Shown here: piece after piece, positions 7,331-18,891 of the stretch
How positions within the stretch are numbered: position 1 is the stretch's first letter
How the letters are laid out: every line of letters begins with the position of its first letter
From: TPA_inf: Saccharomyces
Taxonomy: Eukaryota
Direction of reading: 5' to 3'
NCBI GenBank assembly: GCA_000146045.2
Contig: BK006939.2
Location: 480,001 to 544,000, forward strand
Length of the DNA: 64,000 nucleotides
The notes under the pieces: model-generated
The model's input: only the letters and a program-made list of their open reading frames with translations
Told to the model about the DNA's origin: nothing
The model's database searches: none
Translations under genes and position numbers: made by a program

Positions 7331-7402
7331 CTCCGATACGGGGAGTCGAACCCCGGTCTCCACGGTGAAAGCGTGATGTGATAGCCGTTACACTATATCG
7401 GA
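7331..7402 (-). tRNA. tE(UUC): tRNA-Glu (anticodon UUC)
   Basis: The reverse complement reads TCCGATATAGTGTAACGGCTATCACATCACGCTTTCACCGTGGAGACCGGGGTTCGACTCCCCGTATCGGAG. This has a cloverleaf with anticodon loop CTTTCAC (UUC) and a GGTTCGACTCC T-arm. There is no intron. Confidence 0.93.
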
Positions 7403-7833
7403 TTAAATTCATGAATTTTTTAGGGCTCCGAATATTGTAAATTCGTTAACAATTCAAGCAACTCATTTAAACAAGTAATCAATAAAGTCAAAATATATAA
7501 ACAAATTAAGATCGCTGCCAAAGTAGTGATCAACCAAGAGACATTAAGGTTGTTATCTCGTGGACCACAACGCACCTAGATGCATGCAAACATAACAACA
7601 GTGGAATTCATTTGTTAGATTTGAATTTGCCTTAACATTGCGGTTCGTAAGTTTTCTAGGTGACAGATACCGGAGAAAGGTGAATCGAACTGTATCGTAA
7701 TGTACTACTACTTACTCATATTTTTGGTTCAGTGGGATTTATTGACGTTAAGCTCACTTTTATCATCCTAGTTCAATGTAAAGATTTATGAGATTATTTA
7801 AAGAAGTTTTCAAAGTATTTGTATGATTAATAG

Positions 7834-8165
7834 TGTTGGAATAAAAATCAACTATCATCTACTAACTAGTATTTACGTTACTAGTATATTATCATATACG
7901 GTGTTAGAAGATGACGCAAATGATGAGAAATAGTCATCTAAATTAGTGGAAGCTGAAACGCAAGGATTGATAATGTAATAGGATCAATGAATATTAACAT
8001 ATAAAACGATGATAATAATATTTATAGAATTGTGTAGAATTGCAGATTCCCTTTTATGGATTCCTAAATCCTAGAGGAGAACTTCTAGTATATCTACATA
8101 CCTAATATTATAGCCTTAATCACAATGGAATCCCAACAATTACATCAAAATCCACATTCTCTACA
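7834..8165 (+). mobile_element. Solo delta LTR (Ty1/Ty2 family), about 332 bp, flanked by a 5-bp target-site duplication AATAG (7829-7833 and 8166-8170)
   Basis: It starts TGTTGGAATAAAAATCAACTATCATCTACTAACTAGTATTTAC... and ends ...ATGGAATCCCAACAATTACATCAAAATCCACATTCTCTACA. It retains the Gag start (the MESQQL ORF at 8125). A perfect AATAG direct repeat flanks it. It lies about 430 bp upstream of tRNA-Glu, a typical Ty1 target window. Confidence 0.88.
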
Positions 8166-8856
8166 AATAGCCCTTCACCTTACATTGCACCACTGGTTGA
8201 ACAGTCCATTTTTAAATCTCTCCCATTTTGTTATTGGTATAATGGGGCATGTAAACCTGTACGAGATCCCCAGAAATTACGATGTAAATACCTACATTGG
8301 TATTACAGTTTTTTATGTGAATTAAAATTTATCATCTTAAGATTATTACCACAGCACTATATTCTGAACATTATTCGAAATGATATAATTCAAATATTCC
8401 CTATCAGTATGTCCATAGGCGATAAAAATGTGATTAAGTAATTTTCGAGCCCCCGCGTTAAGCAAGCATCCATCAATAAAAACTTCATTAACACTCTTAG
8501 ATAATCACTGTAAAAAATTCTAATTATCGGTTAAGGTTATAAAGTTAGGTAGCTGGTAAAAAAGCGATTGATCTCAGACATATCTTTTAAATGTTAAAAC
8601 TCATCGCTCTTCAGGGAAATCTTACGCGCTATTTTTACAGTCGCGCGGGTCTTAACCATAATTTTTTACCGCTGCAAATATTTGAATGCTATAAGAGCAG
8701 ATAAAAAATAGATTATAGAAATTAACCTGTTAAAACAATTATCCAAAATGTAGTAAGTATTTATCTTACGTAAAAAGTTCGATGCATATAAAATAAAATA
8801 GAATATATAAAGAGATACAACAGAGTCTCAAGAAGGAAAAAAGCTTGATGAACCCG

Positions 8857-10578
8857 TTATAAGTAGTAATGTGTATACTTAGCGCTATCCTGGTGAACGC
8901 GCATTTCCTTTCTTTTGAACTCATTCACCTCCATTTTGATTTCAATATTGGATATATTTTTTGTGGATGAGAGATTATTACCGACAAAAGTAGAAGGATT
9001 GGTAATGTCTTGGCTCTTTCCTTTAAAGAAATTATTCAAAAAGGTATTATCACACCTGCAATAGTCCGCGGCGGACCACGTATCGTTTACATAAATCTCA
9101 TCCGCAAAGCGTAAGGATTTGACGGCATTTTTAGATTTCGATGACCCTGAAGAAGGGGCAGGTGTTGGCGAAGAAGATATGGATTGCATTGGTCCACGGG
9201 AAACCAACGATGACGAGGACGAAGAAGAAGGAGCCGGCGATGATATTGAAGAGTTTATGAACGAAGAGTTCGCAGCATCAGTAGTGGTAGAGAGAGAAGA
9301 TGGCACAGAAGCAGTCAAAGGCAATTTGTTTAAATACACGGTAGACCATTCATCCTGCAAACGCTTTAAGAAAACGGTGCTCTTTTCCTCTGGAGCAATA
9401 TCTTCATTAGACGAATCTTGACTACAGTAGTATAACTTTGTAGTTCGTTTATCAGACAGTGTAGGTCTGTTTGGTGACCTAGGGGGTGGAAGAACTGGTA
9501 TCCTGTTATTATCTCCGAGTGCTGTCAATTCTTGTACTATGCCAGAGTCCTTAATTGAAGGTACAGCCGTTTCGTGATTGTTAACGGTTGAAAAACTCTG
9601 TTTTATAATTTCAACCGGTTGGTCAAGGGACGTTATCGGTTCTGGTACAACTCTCTCCGGATTTTTCCTTTTCTGCTTTGTTTTGCTATTCTCTTCTACG
9701 GAATCTGCAGAATTTGATGACTTGGACGACCAGATTTTCCTGAAGAAACGAGATATCTTTTTAGAATTTGATCTAATTGCCTTTGGAGACTCGGATTCAG
9801 ATTTCTGATTAGCATCAGCAGCTTTCGTTTGTTGAGGAGAACGATTGTTCGTGCCAGTGGCAATGGAATCGTTATCTGCGGAAGATGGGCCTCCAGTCTG
9901 GGTCAAAGGCAACGATGAACTAGAAGGAGAGTCGGGAAAAGTCGAAGATGGCGGAAGCCTTGCTATCTGGTTTCTTGGCGTGAAATTTTCACCGTTGGGG
10001 AATTGAAAAGCGCTTTTCATCTGCTTTCTTTGTAATTGGAAAGGAGTAAGTTCCTTCCTAACACGTGGATTAGAATAGGTAGGCGGGGATGATCGGAGAC
10101 TGTAGCGACTACCAGAGTACTTTTCGGGAATGGTCATTAAGGAGTGGCGTCTGGACGGGTTTGGTCTACAACGATATTGCGGGTGCGCATTGTGATCACT
10201 GGTAGTATGGTTGTTCATGTTCATGTTCATGTTCATGTTCATGTTCATATTCATATTCATATTCATATTCATGTTATCGTAGCGAGAGGGGCGATTTCTA
10301 GTTGAAGGCAGAGATGAAGTCGAGGAGGAAGCAAAGTTAGGTTTATTGTACTGGCGCATCGGTGCGCCATTACCATTATTGTCTGATCTATTAGCCACCA
10401 GAGTAGAGTGCCTCCTTGAGACGGTAGCATCCGGTATGTAGAACAGATCAATCGTAGACGCAGATCTAGCGTCCACAGCCCTAGGAATACTCAAAGAGTC
10501 TCTCCTTGAAGGAGAAGTGAGCGTGTGAAAATCATTACCATGCAAACTCCTCCTCGAGGAAGAACCCTGCTGTAACAT
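8857..10578 (-). CDS. YER158C: YER158C, Ser/Asn-rich protein of unknown function (573 aa) with an internal (Asn-Met)n tract
   Basis: A 573-aa ORF starting at a real ATG. It is low-complexity (poly-Ser stretches, an NMNMNM... tract and S/T-P sites). Its position between COG3 and BUR6 fits. Confidence 0.8.
   Translation of the reverse strand: MLQQGSSSRRSLHGNDFHTLTSPSRRDSLSIPRAVDARSASTIDLFYIPDATVSRRHSTLVANRSDNNGNGAPMRQYNKPNFASSSTSSLPSTRNRPSRYDNMNMNMNMNMNMNMNMNMNMNNHTTSDHNAHPQYRCRPNPSRRHSLMTIPEKYSGSRYSLRSSPPTYSNPRVRKELTPFQLQRKQMKSAFQFPNGENFTPRNQIARLPPSSTFPDSPSSSSLPLTQTGGPSSADNDSIATGTNNRSPQQTKAADANQKSESESPKAIRSNSKKISRFFRKIWSSKSSNSADSVEENSKTKQKRKNPERVVPEPITSLDQPVEIIKQSFSTVNNHETAVPSIKDSGIVQELTALGDNNRIPVLPPPRSPNRPTLSDKRTTKLYYCSQDSSNEDIAPEEKSTVFLKRLQDEWSTVYLNKLPLTASVPSSLSTTTDAANSSFINSSISSPAPSSSSSSSLVSRGPMQSISSSPTPAPSSGSSKSKNAVKSLRFADEIYVNDTWSAADYCRCDNTFLNNFFKGKSQDITNPSTFVGNNLSSTKNISNIEIKMEVNEFKRKEMRVHQDSAKYTHYYL
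10213..10272. repeat. Hexanucleotide microsatellite (GTTCAT)6(ATTCAT)4 on the plus strand, equal to (ATGAAY)10 on the coding strand and encoding (Asn-Met)n inside YER158C
   Basis: Ten perfect tandem 6-mers are visible in the sequence. The translation shows NMNMNMNMNMNMNMNMNMNMNMNN. Confidence 0.95.
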
Positions 10579-11958: not shown

Positions 11959-12351
11959 TAAGAATGTAGTGATGAGTACTGTAACTGGTTTTATTTTTTT
12001 TTTTGAATTTTTATTTTCGTGACGTGCTTTTTTTTCCGTTTTTGGTTTTAATGCCCCAAAATAAAATAATCCCCTTTTGTATACGTTTTTCTTTGCCTGC
12101 CTTTTTATTTCTCAGTGCATTGCCCTTTCTTTCGCAAATTCATGTGTTTTAAGGGTAATAGGAAATATCACGCTACCTGACAAAAAAAAAAAAAATTAAT
12201 TTTGGCCTGGAAAATTCTTCTCCTTAAATACAAAAAGATTCTTTTTTATAGAATGTCATAATTCACGAACAGTTAAAAAAATATAAACACACAACGTAAC
12301 ACAGATGCCGGGTTACGATATCCGAAAAAGTTGATTAAAAGAAAAATAATC

Positions 12352-12424
12352 CTTCCCCGCCAGGACTTGAACCTGGAATCTTCTGGTTCGTAGCCAGACG
12401 CCGTGACCATTGGGCCACGAGGAA
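12352..12424 (-). tRNA. tR(ACG): tRNA-Arg (anticodon ACG)
   Basis: The reverse complement reads TTCCTCGTGGCCCAATGGTCACGGCGTCTGGCTACGAACCAGAAGATTCCAGGTTCAAGTCCTGGCGGGGAAG. The anticodon loop is CTACGAA and the T-arm is GGTTCAAGTCC. A T5 run (plus-strand AAAAA at 12343-12347) lies just downstream as a Pol III terminator. Confidence 0.92.
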
Positions 12425-12438
12425 TAGGATGTTCAGTG

Positions 12439-12695
12439 TGTTGTATTACGGGCTCGAGTAATACCGGAGTGTCTTGACAATCCTAATATAAACAGTCTTA
12501 GGGAAGTAACCAGTTGTCAAAACAGTTTATCAGATTAATTCACGGAATGTTACTTATCTTATATATTATATAAAATATGAATCATACTAAGTGGTGGAAG
12601 CGCGGAATCTCGGATCTAAACTAATTGTTCAGGCATTTATACTTTTGGGTAGTTCAGCTAGGGAAGGACGGGTTTTGTCTCATGTTGTTCGTTTT
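12439..12695 (-). mobile_element. Ty3 sigma LTR, 3' portion (about sigma nt 85-340), beginning 15 bp upstream of the tRNA-Arg mature 5' end and interrupted by the Ty1 insertion
   Basis: The plus strand TGTTGTATTACGGGCTCGAGTAATACCGGAGTGTCTTGACAATCCTAATATAAACAGTCTTAGGGAAGTAACC...GGACGGGTTTTGTCTCATGTTGTTCGTTTT is the reverse complement of the sigma consensus. The position is the classic Ty3 site next to a Pol III start. Confidence 0.85.
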
Positions 12696-12833
12696 TCAAT
12701 CCTTGCGTTTCAGCTTCCTCTAACATCGATGACAGCTTCTCATAACTTATGTCATCATCTTAACACCGTATATGATAATATATTGATAATATAACTATTA
12801 GTTGATAGACGATAGTGGATTTTTATTCCAACA
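12696..12833 (-). repeat. Ty1 3' LTR, truncated. Only the first 138 nt of U3 are present. They are 100% identical to the matching part of the 5' LTR.
   Basis: The plus strand TCAATCCTTGCGTTTCAGCTTCC...TTTTATTCCAACA (12696-12833) is identical to 18284-18421. The rest of the LTR is absent: there is no TGAGATATATG or GGATTCCATTGTTGAT motif to the left. The sequence passes directly into the GTTTT duplication and sigma. Confidence 0.85.
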
Positions 12834-12842
12834 TACCACCCA
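12834..12842 (-). promoter_or_regulatory. Ty1 polypurine tract (TGGGTGGTA) immediately internal to the 3' LTR
   Basis: The plus strand reads TACCACCCA, adjacent to the CCAACA LTR end at 12833. Confidence 0.8.
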
Positions 12843-12855
12843 TAATGTAATAGAT

Positions 12856-15800
12856 CTAATGAATCCATTTGTTTGTTAATAGTTTGAATGTTTTTATCGG
12901 AAGAGGTTTGGTCATTACGTCTGCAATATTCTTTTTGGTTTCGATATAGCATACGTGCAGATGATTTCCTGATACTTCATCTCTTAGTCTCATTGCTTTA
13001 GTACCAAAAAATCTGTTTCTAAATTTCTCTTCATTATTGGATATAATTATACTGATTGTAGATTTACTGTCGGTTAGTAATCCTTTAGTAATTGGTTTCT
13101 TGTTAAGTTCTTGCACAAGGTGACTGAGGTTATTTAATAATGGGACAGATTCACTTATCGCGTGTATTTCTGCTTCCGTAGTTGAAGTACATGTTAATGA
13201 AGCCTTGGTGGACTTTCCTCCAATTACTTTTCCATTAAGTAAATATATGTTGCCAATTTGTGATTTATAATACGGTTGGTTACCATACGATGCATCGCTT
13301 ATAACAACTAATTTATTTGTTGGCTTAACAGGTTTGCTTTTGTGCCATATTAATTGCTTATCTCTCGTATTCCATATGAACTGTATCAATTCATATGTCA
13401 TATCTAACACTTGCTTGGACGGAAATAGTATATGTTGTGCAAGTGTGTTGATGTAGTATAATAGGTCAAATCTAAATTTATATCCAACATATGATGCTAG
13501 ACCTATCAGCTTTTGCATTTCATGTACCTTCATTTTGTAATCATCTTCTTCTAGCTCTAGTTCTTGCTGGTCTATATATAGACCTGGTTGACCTGGAGCG
13601 CTAAGTTTCCTTCCTTTTGGGTTCAAAGGTACGTTTAGTTTGGGTATTTTTTCAGTTAATGAGTTTTCCATACCTAATTTCATGTATTTACCTCTTTGAT
13701 ATTTGATTTCTAAGCCAAGTATGTCGTACTGAATTTCGTTATCACTTTCACCCAGATTTATTATCTTTGTATCGTATTGTTTCTTGAGTGTTGTTATGAT
13801 TTTCTTATTTGCATTTAAGTCTTTGCTGAACAATATCATATCATCAACGAATAAGCAAATTGTTACTTGACTATTCTTAAATACGCATGACCATCCACGA
13901 ACTTCTTCCATACCACACTGTTTTATCAGGTATGATTTGATAGTTTCGTACCAGTTCGCTCCACTTTGTTTCAATCCATAAAGTGATTTCTTCAAACGTA
14001 TTAACTTATCATTCATTCCTAAATGTGGTGGAGGTCTTATGTATAGTTCTTCTTTGATGTCTGCATACAAATATGCCGAAGATATGTCTAATTGTGTAAT
14101 ATAGTAGTTATTGTCTAATGCAAGTGACAGGGATGTCATTAATGCATAGTGATGTACGGTATTGGATTGCATGCCTGGGTCGTAAGTGTCAGGATGTTGA
14201 ATATCACCTCTTGCAACAAATCTAGCTTTATGAGTACCGTCACGTTTCCTGTTAAAGATAAACATTGAATTTATTACTCTTTTGGGGTCTATTTCTTTTC
14301 TGTCATAATATCTGTCAGTGTCCCAAGTTTTCATCTTCAACAGTTGATTGACTTCTTTGTGGTATGCCTGGATATATTTTTCTTTTTCTTTAATATCTTT
14401 ATTATAGGTGATTGCCTCATCGTATCGTAAGGTTGTTCGTATTGGTTTGATTGATTTTACTGCTTTTACAGCTGCAATCAGGTGAATTCGTTTCTTCGAT
14501 CTCGGAGGTTCTAAACTACGCATATTCTTAGTATTCCATGTGTCTCGTGATACCTTAATTTCAGTTTCATTATCTTCTAATGATCTTTTCTTACTGTTGA
14601 TAGTAGTATAGGCATTAGAGTCACCAATACCACCCAAACTGGAATTAGTTTGATGAGAATTTATCGGTGGGAGTTCTTTAAAGGAGTCTGATAATTCGGT
14701 AGGAGGTTCTGGAGGCAGATCGGGGAGTGGAAGATCAGCGATAATAGATTCCTCTGTATTCTCCTTAGGACAGGTATCTGACGTTTTGATAGGAACGACG
14801 TGGTGTAGTGAATTACTTTCTGATGAGGAAGTATCGATCGAAGGTGAACGGTGTATGATCCTTTTCTCAGTCTCCTGTTCGCTTGTCTGCGGAACAGTTT
14901 TATTATTGGTACCACCCGTACTGGATATTGGTACGTTTGTATGATTAGTCTCATTGTCACTGTACGAGTCTGAGTGTCTGAAATCTTTAGATTTACTGGC
15001 GTGCGACGACTCATGTGTGTTAGATTGGGACATGGGAGCAAGTAAAGGAACATCTAATCTATGCATACCACCCGAACCGGTACTCTCGATATCGGAAATT
15101 TGGGGGGTGCTAGATCTCTTCTTAGATGGAAGAATATTAGATTCAGATATGTTGGGGTCAACTTCTCTGGGTGCGCGAATATTGGTTTTGGAAACACGTT
15201 TCGAATCTTCAGTATGAGTTGACGGAGGTGTGGAATCGGTTGGACTCACAGCTTTTGAAAGGACATTTCTCAGTTGCTCAGGATGTAGTTCAATGTCAGA
15301 TTGGAAGTCATGGTCAGATTCTATGTTAAGATCATTGGATTGTTGGATCTCATTTGACGCAATGAACGAATGATATGAAGCAGTTAAACGGTTTAAGTCT
15401 TCATCGAAAGTGAGTGCGTCGTAATTGAATTGATCTAATCTGGATTCCTTGCCCTGAAGAATAACATAGTTAGTTGTATCTACTGTCTTCTTTAAGGACG
15501 GAAGATAGATGATATATCCATAAGAGTTTCGAGACGGATGTAGAGCGTAGCCTGGGATGCCACGAGGATGTATTTTGGAGTTAGGGTTGTGATCATTGAC
15601 GATAACAGGTTGACCGAAAGGTAACAAAGTACTGATATCAAGTCCTGCCAAGCCAGCATGTTGTCTTGCAGATTTTTTGCTTTTAGGTGAAGCTAGTGAA
15701 TTTCTCACAATAGTAGAAAATTCGATTGCAGAGAACCATAAATGGTTCGGTAAACCACTACATTGCAGTTGAGTACGGCAGTCATCTAATAAGGTACGGT

Positions 15801-16822
15801 TGAGCCGTTCAGCGACTCCATGTGCTCGGGAATCCGCTGTGGTTGTATAGCATGGAGTTATACCATTTTTTTCAAGGAATTTATGGAGAGTTCTGTTAGT
15901 ATACTCAGAACCACGGTCCATTTGTATAACCAAGACACTGGCCTGAAACTGGTTTTTAATAAAAGCTAGTATCGTAGTAAAAACATCGAGGATAGAGTCC
16001 TCGCGACGGTCGTGTAATGGATAAACCCAACGGAATTTTGTTGTCTCATCAGTAAATGAGATGAAATAGGATGGTGCACTTTTTGGTAGGTTGTGAACTG
16101 GACCAAATATGTCAGTATGTAGGTATTGAAAGGGTTCGTATGAATTTTGGTATTTTAGTCGTGAACCTTTGATATGTCTGTGTTTGGTGCTTTTGCCGAT
16201 TAAACAATCAGGACATTGATAGTCAATAGCACTAGACCAGTCGACATCTGATTCGTTAAAATACGTGATGGTGTTATTTTTAAGTGAGTATCGAATTGTC
16301 TGTGCATTGGCATGTGCAAGCATTCGATGAATGAAAGGATAAGGATATTTGCGTGTACTTTCACTTGTATGGACATTATTGATGGTGGGTACGGAGATAT
16401 TTGATGGAAGCAAGTACTTTTTAGATACCCAGTAAAAGTCTCCATATTTTACGATAGGTGCAAGTACAGTGCCGTCAGACCGTTCTAAGACGTTTTTGGT
16501 AAAGCATGCTGTGATATCTACTGCAGCCAATTCATTCAAACTGAGTAAGTCATAGGCTATGTTAGGAGTGTGCAATACCTTTATTGATGTTTTGGTGTTG
16601 TCCTGGAAGTGAAATTGTAGGTCACCAATAGCGTTAATTGGTATATTTCTTTTTTGAGCATCAACTACGTTTATGTCAGGATTAGATGATGCTGAGTGTA
16701 TGTGATGAGCAGATCTTATAAGGGTTCGTGATGCTCCTGAATCGAGAAGGAGGTGTCCAGGGAGTTCATCATCAGAATGATTAGTATGATTTACTGTAGA
16801 TTCAGTAAGTTTCTGGCCTAAG
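12856..16822 (-). CDS. TYB1: Ty1 TYB (Pol: protease-integrase-reverse transcriptase-RNase H), expressed as a Gag-Pol fusion by a +1 ribosomal frameshift at the CUU-AGG-C heptamer. The TYB frame is open from 16818 down to the stop at 12856-12858.
   Basis: The track shows 1239 aa from an internal Met. The frame is continuous upstream to the heptamer. The integrase zinc-binding and DDE region and the RT motif [10 protein letters not shown] are present. Confidence 0.9.
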
Positions 16823-18124
16823 ATGAAGGTCGTGCTTATTGTTCAATTGAATCGGTTCAGTAGTTGATTTACTGATGGAATCGTTGTCCGTGCTGGGAGA
16901 GTTATTAGATGTGGATACATTGTGAGCCCTGGCTGTTTTCGATTTCGAATTATTTGTTTTTTGAGGATTCCGAGCTATAACTTTGGGTTTGGTTGTATTC
17001 GTATAGCTGCGAGAATCATTCTTCTCATCACTCGGATTTCTCCTGTAATTAGGTTTGCTGTTTCTCGATCCCTGTTGTTCTTCATAAATAGCATGGATAT
17101 CTAAGAACAGTTCAGCGACTGTCATATTTAGATGTCGATGACGTGTGTAGCGTAAAAATTTATATTCGCCAGATAGACCTCTCATAATTAATTGGCATGC
17201 GACCTTGTTATTGATATGAATGCCATTATTGTTCAGTCTGTCGATAATGTTTGTGACTTTTGTTTCAAATGCATCTGCAGGTGTACTGCCATTATATTGC
17301 AAATTTGCCAGGGTCACAATGTCGTTTGCCTCTTGGGTATCAGATTGCATTTTTTCAATACTTTTGGAAAGAATTTTCATGATATCCGTATAATCAACGG
17401 ATAGGATGTCTTTGACCCAGGTAGGTAGGAATTGAGAGGGAGCAAATATTTGAAAAGTGTTATACAAGAAGGTGAGTTCATCATCAGTGATCTGACGTAC
17501 GGGTTTTCCGTTTACTGTCGGAATAATACCACCGAGATTCGAGTTTTGTAAAAATTTGATGTATGTTTTAACCCAATTTGGAAAATCATTAGGTGAGGTT
17601 AACATTGGTGGTGGTCTGACATATTTTTTAGTGGATGTCATATCAGAGTCCGCTGAGGATGAATCAGTAAATGTATTACCTGACTCAGGTGATGGAGTGC
17701 TCAGAGGCGTTCCAACTGATGATGGATACTGCGGAAACTGTGATTGTGGCCCAGGTGGAAAGTACATAGGCGACATTTGATAAGGTGTATACGGAATCAT
17801 AGATGGGTGTCCGTAAAATGACCAACCAGATGGATTGGCTTGGTTTTGGGTCATCATGCACTGCTGTGGGTACGGCCCATTCTGTGGAGGTGGTACTGAA
17901 GCAGGTTGAGGAGAGGCATGATGGGGGTTCTCTGGAACAGCTGATGAAGCAGGTGTTGTTGTCTGTTGAGAGTTAGCCTTAGTGGAAGCCTTATCATATT
18001 CTTGAATTTTGGAAGCTGAAACGTCTAACGGATCTTGATTTGTGTGGACTTCCTTAGAAGTAACCGAAGCACAGGCGCTACCATGAGATATATGTGGGTA
18101 ATTAGATAATTGTTGGGATTCCAT
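16802..18124 (-). CDS. TYA1: Ty1 TYA (Gag), 440 aa
   Basis: The ORF track gives 440 aa. The protein is the canonical Ty1 Gag and starts inside the 5' LTR. Confidence 0.93.
16816..16822 (-). promoter_or_regulatory. Ty1 +1 programmed frameshift heptamer CUUAGGC (plus strand GCCTAAG) in the TYA/TYB overlap
   Basis: GGCCTAAG is visible at 16815-16822. It is in the TYA frame 434 codons after the ATG, and the TYB frame is open downstream of it. Confidence 0.85.
18074..18083 (-). promoter_or_regulatory. Ty1 minus-strand primer binding site (TGGTAGCGCC, complementary to the 3' end of initiator tRNA-Met), immediately internal to the 5' LTR
   Basis: The plus strand reads GGCGCTACCA, abutting the LTR end TGAGATA. 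Confidence 0.85.
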
Positions 18125-18421
18125 TGTTGATAAAGGCTATAATATTAGGTATACAGAATATACTAGAAGTTCTCCTCGAGGATATAGGAATCCTCAAAAT
18201 GGGATCTATATTTCTACATACTAATATTACGATTATTCCTCATTCCGTTTTATATGTTTATATTCATTGATCCTATTACATTATCAATCCTTGCGTTTCA
18301 GCTTCCTCTAACATCGATGACAGCTTCTCATAACTTATGTCATCATCTTAACACCGTATATGATAATATATTGATAATATAACTATTAGTTGATAGACGA
18401 TAGTGGATTTTTATTCCAACA
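18084..18421 (-). repeat. Ty1 5' LTR (delta), 338 bp. It contains the TYA start codon (complement of 18122-18124).
   Basis: On the plus strand the LTR starts at TGAGATATATG (18084) and ends in ...TTATTCCAACA at 18421. The element-strand termini are TGTTGG...TCTCA. Confidence 0.9.
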
Positions 18422-18510
18422 GTTTTGTTATAAGGTTGTTTCATATGTGTTTTATGAACGTTTAGGATGACGTATTGTCATACTGACGTATCTCATTTTG
18501 AGATACAACA
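18422..18510 (-). mobile_element. Ty3 sigma LTR, remaining 5' portion (about nt 1-89), on the far side of the Ty1 insertion
   Basis: GTTTTGTTATAAGGTTGTTTCATATGTGTTTTATGAACGTTTAGGATGACGTATTGTCATACTGACGTATCTCATTTTGAGATACAACA is the reverse complement of the sigma start TGTTGTATCTCAAAATGAGATA.... It continues exactly where the left sigma piece stops. The shared GTTTT is the Ty1 target-site duplication. Confidence 0.85.
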
Positions 18511-18891
18511 CAGTGGGCTAAGAATATACAACCGTTTTAGTCAATGTGTTGAAATATCATATTTTAATGCATTGCTCGAATCTCTTCCTTCGACTTACTT
18601 ATATTGATTAAGGGTATGTATTTGATCCTTCCACCTGGAAAAACTGAGGACCTTACAGTGTTATTAAGTGTATGATGTATCACTGTCGTTGTAGTATTTC
18701 TCGGGAAGTTTTTCACTGGCAATTGGAGGTTGCTAGAGTTTCTTTTAACGCATACCCTAAACGCTTGTTTCTATTTTAATGACTACTTGAATCCTATCTA
18801 ACTGGTGACACAATTTGTTTCATTTTTTAATATCTCACCTAATATATCCTAATAATATGAACATACCATAGCTCTTGTAAAGCTGGTCCAT

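Follow-up and report, generated by a model that had tools for sequence, protein, structure and literature searches.

In Saccharomyces cerevisiae, Ty3 integrase is guided by TFIIIB. Ty3 elements insert 1–4 bp from the start site of RNA polymerase III (Pol III) transcription, about −10 from the mature transfer RNA (tRNA), and Ty1 elements insert within ~1 kb upstream of Pol III genes via contacts between their integrase and Pol III subunits (PMC5911963). In the S288C genome, it is common for Ty elements to be nested at tRNA genes, and here we describe one such case: the Ty1 element YERCTy1-2, which lies inside a sigma, the solo long terminal repeat (LTR) of Ty3, upstream of a tRNA-Arg(ACG) gene. 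The DNA analysed, referred to below as the window, is a stretch of 64,000 nucleotides (nt) from S. cerevisiae (assembly GCA_000146045.2, contig BK006939.2, positions 480,001 to 544,000 of the forward strand), in which the locus is flanked by the genes BUR6 and SPT2. We are nearly certain that the locus is from chromosome V of S. cerevisiae S288C and that two retrotransposon integrations took place there upstream of a single tRNA-Arg(ACG). The inserted Ty1, which an initial annotation of the window had called full-length, is intact in its coding regions, but its 3' LTR measures 138 bp vs 338 bp for its 5' LTR.

The nested arrangement itself is already known, having been annotated since 2012, when Carr, Bensasson and Bergman included it in their survey of sacCer2 (Files S2/S3, PMC3511429), whose coordinates equal those of the window plus 479,995. 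In the entries of these files that concern the locus, the sigma chrV_s141-_TY3 occupies 492434–492690 (257 bp) and 498417–498505 (89 bp, including one copy of the target-site duplication), and the Ty1 element chrV_i6-_TY1, that is YERCTy1-2, flagged ‘1-nested’ in this sigma, is divided into a 138-bp LTR (492691–492828), a 5250-bp internal region and a 338-bp LTR (498079–498416). The same element is also designated Ty1-ER2 and YER160C/YER159C-A. Compared with these entries of the S288C chromosome V annotation, the nest in the window agrees fragment for fragment, with identical boundaries, an identical Gag-Pol and no sequence difference.

The tRNA-Arg(ACG) gene, the sigma and the inserted Ty1 share the minus strand (Table 1). 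Both the tRNA gene (ARAGORN, Rfam) and the Ty3 sigma adjoining it (sigma anatomy) were confirmed. The sigma begins at 12439, 14–15 bp upstream of the tRNA-Arg 5' end, where the plus strand reads TGTTGTATTACGGGC, the reverse complement of the Ty3 LTR 3' end; it is interrupted at 12695, picks up at 18422 and ends at 18510 with ...GAGATACAACA. The initial annotation had given the same two pieces, 12439–12695 and 18422–18510, and had described an intact GTTTT duplication, the copies of which we find at 12691–12695 and 18422–18426. Joining 12439–12695 to 18427–18510 rebuilds a sigma of 341 bp, as that annotation had approximately predicted, with termini TGTTGTAT...ATACAACA, so that its length (~340 bp) and inverted-repeat ends are those of a sigma. 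In the alignments published by Carr et al., as far as consulted, this rebuilt sigma is identical at 340/341 positions, without gaps, to an independent sigma, chrVII_s196+_TY3, and the identity spans the Ty1 insertion point (PMC3511429). Other sigmas in the same alignment carry a single AAAAC at this point, and the joined chromosome V sigma differs there by exactly one extra 5-bp unit. Neither separate sigma pieces lacking a Ty1 nor a sigma consensus that already contained GTTTTGTTTT was seen in these comparisons. The sigma also has a target-site duplication of its own, CAGTG, a feature absent from the initial annotation, and it sits at the predicted Pol III start of tRNA-Arg.

The inserted Ty1 covers 12696–18421 (5726 bp), splitting the sigma at 12695/18422, and lies 272 bp upstream of the tRNA (previously put at about 270 bp) with GTTTT on both sides. 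A +1 shift at CTTAGGC leads to a product of 1755 amino acids (aa) that matches exactly UniProt Q03619 / NP_011087.3, the ‘Transposon Ty1-ER2 Gag-Pol polyprotein’ of S. cerevisiae S288C, and the element is therefore YERCTy1-2. The TYA protein is likewise an exact match to S288C Ty1 Gag. In TYB, Pfam domains follow the copia order (Pol_BBD, rve, SH3_retrovirus, RVT_2), with integrase (rve, residues 236–336) preceding reverse transcriptase (RVT_2, residues 854–1060). The primer-binding site, which in Ty1 is complementary to initiator tRNA-Met, and the polypurine tract were both found at the expected places next to the LTRs. Ty2 was considered as an alternative identity and ruled out by the 440-aa TYA together with the exact product match to Ty1-ER2. 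As a side observation, the exact Ty1 Gag sequence is labelled ‘hypothetical protein [Streptococcus uberis]’ in one database source, which suggests yeast DNA contamination of a bacterial submission.

In other assemblies of S. cerevisiae, exact look-ups of the BUR6 and SPT2 proteins located at least 20 loci on chromosome V. The sigma is uninterrupted, with one GTTTT, in 9 haplotypes: the exact 341-bp sigma is present, equally far from the tRNA, in seven loci (L002, L005–L010), and L013 and L014 have the same sigma-only structure. This Ty1 empty site reads ...GTTGTTC GTTTT GTTATAAGG..., with a single GTTTT. Eight other loci (L001, L011, L012, L015, L016, L018–L020) have no sigma and read ...GGATGTT CAGTG GGCTAAG..., with a single CAGTG; in two of them, L015 and L020, nothing else is inserted at the locus. 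LTR retrotransposons do not excise precisely, and the empty alleles are therefore pre-integration states, from which the order follows: the tRNA gene was there first, Ty3 (today a solo sigma) arrived next, and Ty1 entered the sigma last. The two successive Pol III-targeted integrations proposed in the initial annotation, Ty3 and then Ty1 into the sigma, are thus each seen as a separate step in alleles of other strains. Frequencies tabulated by Carr et al., in the part of their data that covers these insertions, agree with the sigma-first order, at 13/16 scorable strains for the sigma vs 3/11 for the Ty1 (PMC3511429).

The same alleles bear on the reading that the two flanks are unrelated partial sigmas, or GTTTT a chance match, with no insertion into a sigma at all. 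Its appeal lies solely in the T-rich nature of the repeat. Set against this, the joined sequence exists, exact and uninterrupted, at the same site in 7 strains and aligns to an independent sigma at 340/341 positions without gaps, and a 5-bp flank match would arise by chance with a probability of ~0.0013, a consideration made irrelevant by the existence of empty-site alleles. We regard this reading as already refuted, with practically no probability left to it.

Among the matches listed, the Ty1 carriers are L004 and L017, neither of which shows any mismatch to the window over ~20 kb, whereas all non-carriers differ from it by 5.7–8.9 substitutions per kb; the S288C haplotype is therefore the only one on which the Ty1 is seen. 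Over 21 kb, the only differences between L017 and the window are three single gaps, one of which was located to a homopolymer (A5 vs A6) at window position 16957 within TYA and is most likely a long-read assembly error and not a real frameshift.

Other insertions occur at the same place in different strains. In L003 (GCA_905220315.1), an inverted solo delta with its own 5-bp duplication lies within the sigma, at the equivalent of window positions 12579–12583, ~155 bp from the tRNA. In the sigma-less loci L001, L011, L012, L016, L018 and L019, several older or compound deltas lie 140–250 bp past the sigma site, at the equivalent of about 18650–18760. The region upstream of tRNA-Arg is a recurrent target, hit by independent delta insertions.

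In the history of the S288C haplotype, Ty3 came first, entering at the predicted Pol III start of the tRNA gene and duplicating CAGTG, and LTR–LTR recombination, a step that we infer, then shrank it to the 341-bp solo sigma. Much later, and on this haplotype only, Ty1 integrase inserted a complementary DNA (cDNA) at sigma nt 85–89, duplicating AAAAC (GTTTT on the plus strand) and giving rise to YERCTy1-2 (Ty1-ER2). The geometry fits both targeting rules, with the Ty3 target at −10 to −14 and the Ty1 at 272 bp upstream, and nothing argues against a nested insertion. The Ty1 insertion is very young: what remains of the 3' LTR matches the 5' LTR at 138/138 positions, and the carriers show 0 mismatches over 20 kb.

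A different route to the same structure would be recombination of Ty1 cDNA, or of an ectopic Ty1, with an older solo delta at GTTTT, in place of de novo integration. Ty1 cDNA is known to enter the genome by a minor pathway of this kind, through recombination with LTRs already present, and the duplication would in that case stem from the earlier delta. Yet no solo delta occupies this position in 20 sampled haplotypes, the sigma-bearing strains show a clean single GTTTT, and the truncated LTR would be left unexplained. We consider this route very improbable.

The truncation of the 3' LTR is the feature that sets YERCTy1-2 apart from a structurally complete Ty1. Positions 12696–12833 are identical to 18284–18421 (138/138), and the match ends exactly at 12696; the 3' LTR is without the 200 bp equivalent to 18084–18283, which comprise the remaining U3, R and U5. 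The truncated LTR stands flush against the GTTTT duplication (...CGTTTT/TCAATCC...), with a one-base (T) ambiguity at the junction, so that the outermost base of the LTR may survive. Its terminus reads ...GGATTGA, and the element does not have two complete LTRs of 334–338 bp with TG...CA ends. The Ty1 is complete in its coding regions and signals (TYA, TYB, frameshift site, primer-binding site and polypurine tract) and is not structurally full-length.

The same junction is present in L004 and in L017, an independent assembly with homopolymer-type differences, and the truncation is therefore no artefact of the reference assembly. In the SGRP alignments, three truncated junctions were found, reference included, which are all three carriers, and 0 junctions with a complete LTR, which would read CGTTTT/TGAGATATATG; nor was an allele with a complete 3' LTR found among the carriers shown (L004 and L017, both identical to the window). 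Because all carriers belong to one haplotype and all are truncated, the truncation cannot be dated from these data, which do not decide between its possible origins. The truncated copy appears, with the suffix ‘_3’, in the LTR alignment of Carr et al., who list YERCTy1-2 as ‘Full’ because they define full-length elements as having both LTRs; the consulted parts of that study do not remark on the 3' LTR being truncated flush with the duplication (PMC3511429). A full-text literature search likewise returned nothing on the truncated YERCTy1-2 LTR or on truncated-LTR Ty1 insertions with duplications.

Our preferred guess, towards which we lean narrowly, is that the truncation dates from integration itself. 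The downstream plus strand would have been incompletely synthesised, ending inside U3, and integrase would have joined its 3'-OH to the target; the host would then have trimmed the unpaired minus-strand tail of ~200 nt during gap repair, leaving a truncated LTR flush with a perfect 5-bp duplication. Given the complete 5' LTR, reverse transcription must have passed through a stage with a full minus-strand copy of the downstream LTR, which is compatible with a truncation at integration. The more specific proposal that YERCTy1-2 arose naturally, in vivo, when integrase joined a non-LTR end, with the 3'-OH at U3 nt 138, seems to us possible and rather doubtful. Several points weigh against an origin at integration. 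Ty1 integration in vivo is reported to need LTR termini (work by Sharon and colleagues in 1994), and the truncated end reads ...GGATTGA and not ...CA. All carriers represent one haplotype with the same truncated junction, and the identical sequence would result if 200 bp had simply been lost by end joining at 1 nt of microhomology (T).

Under that last scenario, a Ty1 with two complete LTRs would have integrated normally and later lost the 200 bp of LTR nt 139–338 through end joining or replication slippage. Canonical integration requires no special assumption about integrase, the junction CGTTTT/TCAATCC permits the 1 nt of T microhomology typical of end joining, and five deletion-truncated elements in S288C are listed in the consulted part of Carr et al. 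(PMC3511429). On the other hand, the outer endpoint of such a deletion would fall within ~1 nt of the border between LTR and duplication, leaving the duplication untouched, roughly a 1-in-hundreds coincidence; the element is very young judging from its 138/138 LTR identity, and the complete-3'-LTR allele from which the deletion would have started was not found among the carriers shown or the SGRP junctions described above. We take a later deletion to be a serious candidate, somewhat short of an even chance. Truncation at integration is slightly favoured because it predicts the flush endpoint, which is a coincidence under later deletion.

Two further routes were tried and rejected. A deletion between the CGTTTT of the sigma and the CGTTTT within the LTR (18249–18254) would leave ATATGTTT, not TCAATCC. 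For a second Ty1 insertion followed by LTR–LTR recombination, no scenario places LTR nt 1–138 directly beside the original duplication.

Regarding function, we infer from the sequence that YERCTy1-2 can still provide proteins and take part in recombination as a substrate, and that its RNA would be unable to perform normal first-strand transfer, which would make the element cis-defective for retrotransposition, because the 3' LTR is without R, U5 and the normal region of 3' end formation. In published work, YERCTy1-2 serves as an ectopic recombination substrate or landmark. The sigma remnant at 12439–12695, in the same orientation as the Ty1, still contains the sigma's TATAAA region and its downstream end, and Ty1 read-through transcripts might, purely speculatively, end in it.

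The locus is a clean teaching case of how two retrotransposon families are directed to Pol III genes, with all three allelic states (empty, sigma only, and sigma with Ty1) persisting in the species. The truncated 3' LTR is relevant wherever YERCTy1-2 is counted as an ‘intact’ Ty1 or used as a recombination substrate, and the flush junction raises a small question about the fidelity of Ty1 integration. If integrase did join a non-LTR end here, some Ty1 insertions would escape junction sequencing that is anchored on LTR tips.

Elsewhere in the window, the solo delta upstream of tRNA-Glu(UUC) has an intact 5-bp duplication, AATAG, at 7829–7833 and 8166–8170, and is 84% identical to the Ty1 LTR. 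It corresponds to YERCdelta22, classed as Ty2-type and present in 7/22 strains in the relevant entry of Carr et al. (PMC3511429). A minus-strand open reading frame at 8857–10578 (573 aa) contains Asn-Met dipeptide repeats (NMNMNM...); its length among strains ranges from 565 to 581 aa, possibly through repeat expansion and contraction.

Table 1 Features of the nested locus and neighbouring elements, in window coordinates.
Feature	Position	Strand	Remarks
tRNA-Glu(UUC)	7331–7402		
Solo delta, 332 bp	7834–8165	+	432 bp upstream of tRNA-Glu(UUC)
T-run resembling a Pol III terminator	about 12337–12346		just downstream of tRNA-Arg(ACG); read from sequence
tRNA-Arg(ACG) gene, Pol III target	12352–12424	−	ARAGORN; Rfam RF00005, 60.8 bits
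Ty3 target-site duplication CAGTG, tRNA-side copy	12434–12438		−10 to −14 from mature tRNA 5' end
Sigma (Ty3 solo LTR), tRNA-side part, 257 bp	12439–12695	−	sense nt 85–341, ends ATACAACA; includes GTTTT 12691–12695
Ty1 target-site duplication GTTTT, tRNA-side copy	12691–12695		sigma nt 85–89, AAAAC in sense
Ty1 3' LTR, truncated	12696–12833	−	first 138 nt of U3
Polypurine tract GGGTGGTA	12834–12841	−	adjoins 3' LTR
TYB (pol) open frame, 1328 codons	12856–16842	−	beta-barrel/protease region, integrase, reverse transcriptase
TYA (gag), 440 aa	16802–18124	−	ATG within 5' LTR; Pfam TYA, E = 9.6e-235
CTTAGGC +1 frameshift heptamer	16816–16822	−	in TYA/TYB overlap
Primer-binding site TGGTAGCGCC	18074–18083	−	adjoins 5' LTR
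Ty1 5' LTR (delta), complete, 338 bp	18084–18421	−	TGTTGG...TCTCA
Ty1 target-site duplication GTTTT, tRNA-distal copy	18422–18426		
Sigma (Ty3 solo LTR), tRNA-distal part	18427–18510	−	sense nt 1–84, starts TGTTGTAT
Ty3 target-site duplication CAGTG, tRNA-distal copy	18511–18515		

A close counterpart of this nest is YERCTy1-1, ~49 kb away on chromosome V, which according to its entry in Carr et al. is likewise a Ty1 in a solo LTR near Pol III genes, flagged ‘1-nested’ (PMC3511429). It lies at 443393–449316, with its host LTR at 443366–443392 and 449317–449626 (File S3), and differs in that this host LTR is a Ty2-type delta, not a sigma, and in having two complete 337-bp LTRs. Generic sigmas at tRNA start sites share with the present one a length of ~340 bp, the termini TGTTGTAT/ATACAACA, a duplication of 5 bp and a position at the start site, the only difference being the Ty1 interruption here. 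As for the truncated end, retroviral integration proceeds from recessed 3' ends, with the 5' overhangs trimmed by the host. If YERCTy1-2 was truncated at integration, its intermediate would have resembled the retroviral one by analogy, with integrase joining a 3'-OH and the unpaired 5' tail being removed in gap repair; the retroviral tail, however, is 2 nt long and lies beside a conserved CA, whereas the tail here would have been ~200 nt long, with the joined end inside U3.

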